Shown in pieces: positions 43,170-45,053 of a stretch of 64,000 nt of DNA. Source of the stretch: Rhizaria sp. SCN 62-66 (taxonomy: Eukaryota); NCBI GenBank assembly GCA_001724265.1, contig MEDY01000097.1, forward strand, positions 1 to 64,000, written 5' to 3'. The notes beneath the pieces were generated by a model, which saw nothing but the letters and a program-made list of their open reading frames with translations, did not search any database and was not told the DNA's origin. The translations under genes and the position numbers were made by a program. Positions within the stretch are counted from its first letter, which is position 1. The number at the start of each line of letters is the position of its first letter.

Positions 43170-44162
43170 ATGGCTGCTGCCGTTGCTGACTGTGGGTGCC
43201 AGGCGTGGCGCTTCAACCCCGACGTGGACGTCGACGACAAGTTCGCGCCGCACCAGTTCACCCCCAACGTACCCGTGTCGCACGCCGAGCTGGAGAAGCT
43301 TGGCGTGCTCTACTTCAAGATGGCGCAGCTCGACGCGGACCCCCAGCTGGAGGTGCTGAAGAAGGAGCGCGGCTACACCAACTTCGACGTTGTCAACATC
43401 ACCGCGGCGACTCCGGCGGAGAAGCTCGAGATCTTTTACGATGAGCACCTGCATGAGGACGAGGAGATCCGCCTCTGCCTCGCCGGCACCGGCTACTTTG
43501 ACGTTCGCAGCGCTGGTGACTCGTGGATCCGCATCAAGTGCAACCCCGGCGACCTGTTGATTCTCCCGGCCGGCATCTACCACCGCTTCACGCTTGACTC
43601 GTCCAAGAGCATCACCGCGATGCGCCTCTTCACCTCCGCGCCTAAGTGGATCGCGCTCTCCCGCCAGGAGACGGCGACGGATGCCGTGCCGTCCCGCGCC
43701 GAGTACACCGCCGCCGTGCGCGCCGCCACCACGGGCGCGGGCGAGCCCATCATCATCGACGACGGGCCGCAGGCGCTCGCTCATTACCCCCACGCGCGCA
43801 AGGCCGGCGGACTCATCTATCTCTCCGGCTTCTCCTCGCGCCGCCCCGACAACACGCACCGCGGCGCCGTGGCGCGCGCCGAGGCCGACGGCGGTGGCTT
43901 CGAGCTGGACGTGTTCGAGCAGACCTGCGGCGTGATTGAGAACATGCGCACCGTGCTTAAGGCCGCCGGCGCGGACCTCAGTCACCTGCTCGACATCACC
44001 GTGTTCCTGACCGACATGGCGCACTTCAAGCGGTACAACGAGGCGTACAACAAGTACTTCACGGCACAGACGGGCCCCACGCGCACCACGGTCGCCGTCA
44101 AGCAGTTGCCGCACCCCAACCTCCTCATTGAGATCAAGGGCGTCGCTGCTGAGAAGATCTAA
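43170..44162 (+). CDS. ADI1: Fusion: acireductone dioxygenase (ARD/ADI1 cupin) + Rid/YjgF-family deaminase (2-aminomuconate deaminase-like)
   Basis: Single uninterrupted 330-aa ORF. N-half has ARD metal motif FYDEHLHEDEEIR and PGDLLILPAGIYHRFTLD. C-half has AHYPHARKAGGLIYLSGFSSRRPDNT...YNEAYNKYF...GPTRTTVAVKQLPHPNLLIEIKGVA (Rid fold, catalytic Arg in PTRTT). Confidence 0.92.
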   Translation: MAAAVADCGCQAWRFNPDVDVDDKFAPHQFTPNVPVSHAELEKLGVLYFKMAQLDADPQLEVLKKERGYTNFDVVNITAATPAEKLEIFYDEHLHEDEEIRLCLAGTGYFDVRSAGDSWIRIKCNPGDLLILPAGIYHRFTLDSSKSITAMRLFTSAPKWIALSRQETATDAVPSRAEYTAAVRAATTGAGEPIIIDDGPQALAHYPHARKAGGLIYLSGFSSRRPDNTHRGAVARAEADGGGFELDVFEQTCGVIENMRTVLKAAGADLSHLLDITVFLTDMAHFKRYNEAYNKYFTAQTGPTRTTVAVKQLPHPNLLIEIKGVAAEKI

Positions 44163-45053
44163 AAGACTACGACGTTTCCAAAAACTACGTTGTATTTGTT
44201 TATTGTTGTATTCGGGCGTTGTATGCGCCACTTGGTACAGTGTGACTTAAAGCAAACTAATAATAAAAATATTGTTGTTTTCTTCTTCGAATAGTCATTT
44301 TTCTTGACATTTGTACATTTGTAAACTGTGTGTACCACCGTCCGTCTGGCGCAGTTTGCGATAGCTCTTTCGGTCCATTATCATTCCATCAACATGCGCG
44401 TTAAAGAAAAGTAGATTGTATTGTTTTTGTAATGTGACATCATGAATATAAGAAGTCAGTCGTAGCCAAGCTTGTTGTCGTTACGTTCCATTCAATGATG
44501 GCGCAATCTGTACGTAACGTGTAGGGACACTTGCTCAAATGATTGCAAATGCGTACAGCGTACAGTCTGTGCTTCATTTTAAATGACATTACTCTTAGTG
44601 CAAGCTCCAACAGCGTCACTTTAAGGTAATCTATCTTGACACGACACCACATTGCATCACCTAACATACCTGCACACATTGACCTAATGTCTCATGCACG
44701 CCCCAATCTCCATCTCAGTGTGCGCAGCCGCAGCCGCAGTCTCACGACACAAGGAAGGTGGCGGCGCCGCTGCTAGCTGCTGCGGCGAGGCCCCCCGCAC
44801 ACTCGCGGCGATGAGACTGGGGTCTGGGGAACGACGTGGAGGAAGACTGATAACGCACGGCAGCGCAACACAGCAGCGTGTTCCACTGGCCATATCCGTA
44901 TTTCATATTTGGTTTCATTTTCTGTTGATAATAAGATATTGTTTTCTAAAAATCGTCGTTATGCTTGGCGAATATTCCATCGTAAGCTCACCTAATCCCC
45001 GATGCAATCCTCGGTCACATGTCATTGCGTTCACTCAGTCTATACGCGCTCGT

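Follow-up and report, generated by a model that had tools for sequence, protein, structure and literature searches.

A fused acireductone dioxygenase (ARD, ADI1/MtnD) is known from Tetrahymena thermophila, where MtnB and MtnD are joined as MtnBD (PMC2759508 and PMC6302742, in the parts available); according to the accessible portion of PMC2759508, the enzymes so linked belong to the same pathway, and the genome lacks MtnC. In human ARD, H/H/E/H positions are the metal ligands (PMC8315008, available text). Among Rid proteins, AmnE of Pseudomonas sp. AP-3 assembles into a hexamer by means of loop residue R56, as stated in the accessible part of PMC6742747, which also gives the cleft residues and reports that the enzyme could not be assayed. 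For the 2-aminomuconate deaminase (AMD) of A. flavus, the available text of bioRxiv 10.64898/2026.06.05.730449 describes deamination of 2-aminomuconate and no speed-up of the hydrolysis of a threonine-derived imine; it was not until this 2026 preprint that the eukaryotic step after 2-aminomuconate was assigned, to a deaminase in fungi and to a reductase in animals, and the eukaryotic AMD is called fungal there.

Here, we follow up an earlier note on a 64,000-nucleotide stretch of DNA (the window), in which one reading frame had been interpreted as ARD fused to a Rid protein. Like MtnBD, the product is a protist fusion that contains MtnD/ARD (PMC2759508, available part), but here ARD occupies the N-terminus, the enzyme joined to it belongs to tryptophan breakdown, and the host encodes MtnB and MtnC in genes of their own. 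A literature search, with most subscription papers outside its reach, found no description of an ARD fusion with 2-aminomuconate deaminase, and the accessible main text of 10.64898/2026.06.05.730449 contains none of the words ‘fusion’, ‘acireductone’ and ‘ADI1’; its supplements may show AMD in other eukaryotes. What emerges is a conserved fusion, apparently undescribed, that joins two known enzymes; its architecture is widespread in protists but, within that search, not described.

One reading frame encodes both domains

The frame runs from ATG to TAA with no internal stop (Table 1), and the spacers on either side have a lower GC content (0.43 and 0.45) than the ORF. Its neighbours are eukaryotic: a Grp94-type Hsp90 gene upstream and a gene for a WW/PH protein downstream. 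Pfam recognizes ARD (PF03079) at residues 12–162 (E = 1.8e-42) and Ribonuc_L-PSP at residues 200–327 (E = 1.2e-25), and a search of the host genome (G000) with the protein itself returned one stop-free frame as the top match. Together with the homologues below, these results bear out the single-ORF fusion.

Run X5, which is poly-A RNA, gives a contig over the junction (43634–43972, depth 2.9) and another inside a spacer (44404–44657), the latter meaning that DNA carry-over is possible. The RNA-seq check across the linker thus yields a bridging contig with that qualification, and RNA support for the fusion in the host is weak, being one low-depth contig. This thinness is what could speak for an assembly or annotation artefact, or for two genes sharing one frame. 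Against such a reading, contigs of X4, X5 and X6 cross the junction at at least 99% (under the bridging rule applied, X7 does not bridge it); a homologue search found 359 proteins among 8000 scored, and in 80 of the 120 clusters listed, query included, our own profiles detect both domains; complete transcriptome ORFs carry both; and both motifs lie in one frame at 6 of 6 metagenome loci checked. We regard an artefact as practically negligible and the fusion as confirmed.

Table 1. Features of the fusion gene, in window coordinates
Feature	Position	Strand	Basis
ARD–AMD fusion, single ORF, 330 aa	43170..44162	+	ORF, Pfam and host-genome match
ARD (ADI1/MtnD) cupin with C-terminal helices, residues 12–183	43203..43718	+	Pfam, PDB matches, Foldseek
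Metal ligands H93, H95, E99	43446..43466	+	Mouse ARD alignment; PMC8315008 (available part)
Fourth metal ligand H138	43581..43583	+	Mouse ARD alignment; PMC8315008 (available part)
Junction R184–G191: ARD helix end, short hinge, G191 as first conserved AMD residue	43719..43742	+	Model, conservation, pN/pS
AmnE/AMD-type Rid domain, residues 191–327, predicted trimer-forming part	43740..44150	+	Pfam, AmnE match, tree, Foldseek, trimer model, identities
SSRR motif, residues 222–225	43833..43844	+	Common to AmnE-type deaminases; not in E. coli RidA
Predicted catalytic Arg R305 (RidA R105, AmnE R117)	44082..44084	+	56/56 fusions; cleft residues of PMC6742747 (available part)
E321 (RidA E120) and K323 (RidA E122, AmnE K135)	44130..44138	+	Alignment

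The ARD half

The ARD half scores 145.7 bits in Pfam against a curated cut-off of 27; its closest PDB matches are mouse and human ARD (E = 3e-41), and ARDs are the top two Foldseek matches, with a TM-score of 0.91 (by target length) to 1VR3. As had been noticed at first sight, all four ligands are kept, H93, H95, E99 and H138 aligning with H88, H90, E94 and H133 of mouse ARD. F89, R101, F110, F140 and A150 align with mouse F84, R96, F105, F135 and A145, which we take to be pocket residues, and the pocket of the host copy is that of an ordinary ARD at all positions checked. The half thus shares its fold, ligands and pocket-equivalent residues with ADI1/MtnD (mouse 5I8S and 1VR3, human 4QGN), and likewise it is the sole ARD match (one candidate) in a genome with MtnA, MtnB and MtnC; it differs in having AMD attached at its C-terminus, from which a trimeric state is predicted. 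These comparisons suggest that it serves as the cell's acireductone dioxygenase. An assignment of the cupin to HAAO was ruled out, the cupin being ADI1-like and HAAO a separate host gene.

The four ligands are retained in 62 of 64 full-length fusions and lost in the other two, a Lapot copy and one labelled Hirondellea gigas (an amphipod). Five foraminiferan-type copies keep H/H/E/H and R101, with F89, F140 and A150 replaced. These fusions (P0084, P0085, P0090, P0091 and P0100, Ammonia sp. being in one cluster) have a cupin diverged to 24–37% identity and a deaminase half that stays at 54–56%.

The Rid half and its bacterial relatives

AmnE (6IZH) is the top PDB match of the Rid half (E = 1.5e-29; the next, 1e-18), and Foldseek aligns the two with a TM-score of 0.93 (by target length). 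SSRRPDNT and QLPHPNLLIEIK, given in the earlier note as typical of AMD-like members, both occur in this half and match AmnE. Identity is 47% to the amn-operon (2-aminophenol-type) deaminase of Pseudomonas veronii and 28% to E. coli RidA, and the scores lie under the RidA cut-offs (NCBIfam TIGR00004, 81.7 versus 106.25 bits; PRK11401, 44.9 versus 222). The Rid tree, with two outgroup rows, both long, groups it with AmnE-type proteins and away from RidA.

At the level of residues, S35, G36, R117 and K135 of the AmnE cleft, as listed in the accessible part of PMC6742747, correspond to S219, G220, R305 and K323, and the extended loop after SSRR is present; K323, SSRR and the long loop are common to 31 of 31 aligned bacterial relatives. 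The catalytic arginine predicted at the outset, R305, aligns with R105 of E. coli RidA and is Arg in every fusion aligned; being common to RidA and AMD, it is not diagnostic of RidA. R224, found in 55 of 56 fusions and all 31 bacterial relatives, may with SSRR hold the second carboxylate of 2-aminomuconate. E321 is invariant (56/56), and position 323 is K in 47 of the 56 fusions and Q in 9. With RidA the half shares the Rid fold and equivalents of Y17, G31, N88, R105, P114 and E120, whereas K stands for E122 and SSRR replaces the RidA loop. It has SSRR, the long loop and the R117 and K135 equivalents in common with AmnE and, as for AmnE and the fungal AMD of A. flavus, kynurenine genes upstream of AMD are present in the genome; it differs from both in being fused to ARD and carried by protists. 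Judged by these comparisons, the Rid half is of the AMD/AmnE type, not RidA.

AMD-like Rid domains also occur in other fusions, with an aldehyde dehydrogenase and three Rid domains in P0134, an FAH-family domain in P0173 and a biotin/lipoyl domain in P0088; the architectures of P0134 and P0173 are in keeping with the pathway to which the deaminase belongs.

Among the best 80 of 235 confirmed GTDB relatives, 52 loci have a kynurenine-pathway gene within 6 kb (we counted HAAO, ACMSD, semialdehyde dehydrogenase and kynureninase, and an ALDH match may be another pathway's ALDH) and 28 have none nearby; among GTDB loci of at least 10 kb, the proportion is 33 of 44. The seven closest bacterial matches (L111–L117) lack a kynurenine neighbour. 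Downstream enzymes are also found at the best 80 loci: the hydratase/decarboxylase family at 33, the aldolase at 25 and the acylating dehydrogenase at 29. ARD, MtnB or MtnC lies near the Rid relative at none of these 80.

The host and its pathway genes

The nearest named matches of the window's Grp94, ranked by score and not by a tree, are Paulinella, Norrisiella, Lapot and Bigelowiella, then Guttulinopsis and Cafeteria, at 52–57% identity. We take the record labels ‘Norr’ and ‘Bigna1’ to mean Norrisiella and Bigelowiella and place both in Rhizaria; on this ranking the host is probably rhizarian. The polyubiquitin junction, presumably a rhizarian marker, occurs at none of 8 host ubiquitin loci and is uninformative on this identity. 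Five of the loci listed (L193, L194, L196, L197 and L200) are single-unit ubiquitin genes with an extra Met-Ser start and a three-residue tail.

For methionine salvage, MtnA, MtnB and MtnC are all found apart from the fusion, MtnB as two exons that are each below the cut-off. For tryptophan, the genome holds TDO, a KMO-like gene, kynureninase, HAAO, ACMSD (top PDB matches all ACMSD, E = 1e-54) and aminomuconate-semialdehyde dehydrogenase (the seven best of nine PDB matches), and the last three provide a source of 2-aminomuconate. ASPDH, the animal alternative, has no match in this genome assembly, which may be incomplete. The 3-HAO profile matches the HAAO locus twice (G000:C165:56199-57586 (-), L003–L005), suggesting a two-cupin form. 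The fusion is the only ARD and the only AMD detected in the genome, and its Rid half is probably the cell's 2-aminomuconate deaminase.

Separate RidA-like genes lie at G000:C192 and G000:C15. The latter (G000:C15:153207-154817 (-), L007) encodes at least three Rid domains in tandem, spread over two long frames that an intron apparently separates; the former (G000:C192:29889-30352 (+), L008) contains an intron and has an N-terminal extension that, by eye, resembles a mitochondrial targeting peptide.

The initial reading had also suggested imine/enamine damage control, in which the Rid half would hydrolyse imines or enamines of methionine metabolism to ARD's keto acid, or protect a PLP transaminase. 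RidA does hydrolyse a methionine-derived imine well (PMC4433059, available part), and Y206, R305 and E321 are the equivalents of its Y17, R105 and E120. Such a role is nonetheless quite unlikely: the half groups with AmnE-type enzymes, the A. flavus AMD is inactive on the threonine-derived imine (10.64898/2026.06.05.730449, accessible text), the host has its own RidA-like genes, and none of the 80 bacterial loci scored above lies near ARD, MtnB or MtnC.

The bacterial downstream set (hydratase/decarboxylase family, aldolase, acylating dehydrogenase) was not found in the host genome, in which FAH-family genes resemble fumarylacetoacetase and a generic FAH protein, and the aldolase match is HMG-CoA lyase. 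This gap would suit a cupin that cleaves the enol AMD product (2-hydroxymuconate) with O2 as the next step of eukaryotic tryptophan breakdown, as would the foraminiferan-type pockets and the fate of the product in fungi, left open in the accessible part of PMC7842363. Opposed to it are the ordinary pocket of the host copy, the occurrence of AMD without the fusion in fungi and dictyostelids, and the simpler alternative of reduction to 2-oxoadipate by some reductase. ARD chemistry also requires an enediol, which counts against this activity. We hold it to be very unlikely, whether as a side activity in most carriers or as the main activity in foraminiferan copies.

Junction, predicted trimer and probable independence of the two sites

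RAATTGAG had been read as the linker. In an AlphaFold2 model of the fusion (pLDDT 91.4, pTM 0.63), R184–T188 lie inside the ARD C-terminal helix, and G191 is conserved in all but one of 56 fusions and in all seven stand-alone eukaryotic AMDs, leaving a hinge of about three residues here; the short hinge stands, but most of RAATTGAG belongs to the helix end and the conserved glycine. Across fusions, the inter-domain gap ranges from 1 to 69 residues. At residues 166–190, pN/pS is 0.58–1.45 as compared with 0.19–0.42 in the domains, values that come from three pairs with synonymous sites near saturation; both domains are under purifying selection in all three.

ESMFold2 gives the trimer a score of 0.90 (best of three controls, 0.00); at least 89% of contacts recur between runs, and the pLDDT is at least 81. 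All confident contacts fall in residues 189–327 and none involves an ARD residue, a residue not named being uncertain. Among solved pairs, 21 of 30 attain the trimer mark, against 0 of 23 single chains; for eukaryotes the figure is 17 of 29, dropping to 1 of 7 without an older relative. As similar Rid trimers are already solved, the score shows likeness and may be the model's memory of them. With this reservation, the modelling agrees with the proposed trimerization through the Rid domain, and the fusion is most likely trimerized via its AMD domain.

ARD is fused to many other partners among the matches, including thioredoxin-like, GST, phosphorylase, MtnB-like and second ARD domains. ARD with a TXD17-like thioredoxin has seven representatives at 50% identity (P0177, P0180, P0188, P0218, P0249, P0250 and P0262); ARD-GST, ARD-phosphorylase, MtnB-like-ARD and tandem ARD make up further architectures (P0150, P0116, P0251, P0255, P0015, P0124, P0128 and P0137), and tandem ARDs have two to four copies, with chytrids among the named carriers. 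One further publication reportedly bears on the MtnBD fusion. These partners, together with Tetrahymena MtnBD (PMC2759508, available part), weaken the view that ARD normally stands alone.

Mataza has an AMD of the same clade without ARD. A variable, near-neutral linker, the many ARD partners and an ARD half that is dead or lost in some lineages point to independent sites without channelling; we count the pTM of 0.63 beside a pLDDT of 91 in the same direction. No reaction step is common to the substrates of both halves. Independent sites are therefore favoured; the metabolic link first suggested is unsupported. A stabilising or regulatory tie would have the trimer stabilise ARD, bias its metal choice or fix a 1:1 ratio of the pathways; in mammals, two O2-dependent amino-acid pathways share a transaminase (PMC7022959, available part). 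Retention in many deep lineages with ARD always first (102 of 102 fetched proteins with both domains), and a cupin that persists without ligands in two fusions, are compatible with such a tie, but the confident trimer interface contains no ARD residue, again with unnamed residues uncertain, and the linker is unconstrained in length and sequence; we consider it unlikely.

Distribution of the fusion

Named carriers, all transcriptome ORFs, are Leptophrys vorax, Lapot gusevi, Ammonia sp., Ploeotia vitrea, Mayorella and the Hirondellea gigas record. Leptophrys, Lapot and Ammonia are Rhizaria, and we propose that the fusion spans Rhizaria and, within protists, is centred on them; no chlorarachniophyte, Paulinella or Plasmodiophora fusion is among the 120 clusters listed. 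The euglenid, amoebozoan and amphipod records may reflect older inheritance, transfer or passengers, and the backbone of a full-length tree (54 rows) gives Ploeotia and Mayorella no resolved place relative to the named rhizarians. Metagenome contigs carry both halves at 11 of 80 loci, one of which (L030) is identical to the query; another locus, L038, is eukaryotic since it lies between zf-UBR and ubiquitin-hydrolase genes. Stand-alone AMD without the fusion occurs in fungi, early-branching ones among them, and in dictyostelids.

Short-pattern scans found no fusion among the best 80 of the 235 confirmed GTDB relatives and confirmed none of 14 viral-contig candidates; a plasmid scan with only the Rid half as query matched 35 records. 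Being built on short patterns, these scans may have missed a fusion. A long bacterial match (L119) has no ARD match. Automatic JGI labels name both halves on one cluster. ESM Atlas gave no feature matches, and its structure matches are single domains, none with both.

Evolutionary history

Removing 8 near-duplicates left 56 of the 64 full-length fusions for the trees. The Rid tree, built by a quick method from 118 rows and 134 columns, has a branch (SH-aLRT 92) with 54 of these 56 fused domains on one side, together with three short proteins that include the Mataza AMD; P0068 and the divergent P0127 fall outside. This support is below our threshold and leaves monophyly of the fusions unproven. 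Eukaryotic AMDs held as one clade are acceptable (p-AU 0.72), and an N-G start is common to the fusions and all seven stand-alone eukaryotic AMDs. In the ARD tree, from which seven degenerate rows were excluded, the free search scatters the fusions (8 changes), but a single clade, chosen after viewing the tree, scores higher (p-AU 0.90). Distances measured on the one tree correlate with those on the other (rho 0.51, 0 of 2000 permutations). Separate trees of the halves, proposed in the earlier note, hence agree with a single old fusion between two eukaryotic genes and do not prove it.

GC3 is 0.91 in the Rid half, 0.88 in the ARD half and 0.94 in Grp94, and such host-like values speak against a recent transfer of the Rid half. 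With the N-G start and the acceptable single eukaryotic clade, they run counter to the bacterial source first suggested for this half: its immediate source looks eukaryotic, and its ancient origin may be bacterial.

Discussion

We think it probable that the protein is a cytosolic bifunctional housekeeping enzyme with two independent sites, an AMD trimer and an origin in one old protist fusion. The ORF, domain identities, residues, genome complement and wide conservation are direct observations; both activities, the trimer, the independence of the sites and the cytosolic location are what we infer. The N-terminal cupin, with Fe(II) and O2, would convert acireductone from MtnB and MtnC to the keto acid precursor of methionine and formate. 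Three C-terminal domains would form the Rid trimer, whose clefts would take 2-aminomuconate supplied by the kynurenine pathway and release 2-oxohex-3-enedioate and ammonia by hydrolysis. The three ARD domains would be attached without a fixed interface and both sites would act independently, handing no substrate between them, and the fusion may persist because it is harmless and jointly expressed.

Several points count against this two-site enzyme. It has persisted across deep lineages for longer than pure neutrality would lead one to expect; the pocket changes of the foraminiferan-type copies, with ligands kept, find no explanation in simple housekeeping; no known enzyme acting on the AMD product turned up in the host; and the seven closest bacterial matches, like 28 of the 80 loci overall, lack a kynurenine gene in their neighbourhood.

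The fusion extends the AMD branch to Rhizaria and probably to other protists, beside the stand-alone copies of dictyostelids and early-branching fungi, so that the deaminase step of tryptophan breakdown is not confined to fungi and bacteria. Domain-based annotation names one half only, and one pathway therefore looks broken in carrier genomes. A single ancient fusion followed by decay or loss of ARD would be a candidate rare genomic marker. The protein also offers a test case for two questions, whether joining unrelated pathways has any effect and what uses up the deaminase product in eukaryotes; a cupin that cleaved that product would, if true, be a Rosetta stone for how tryptophan breakdown ends in eukaryotes.
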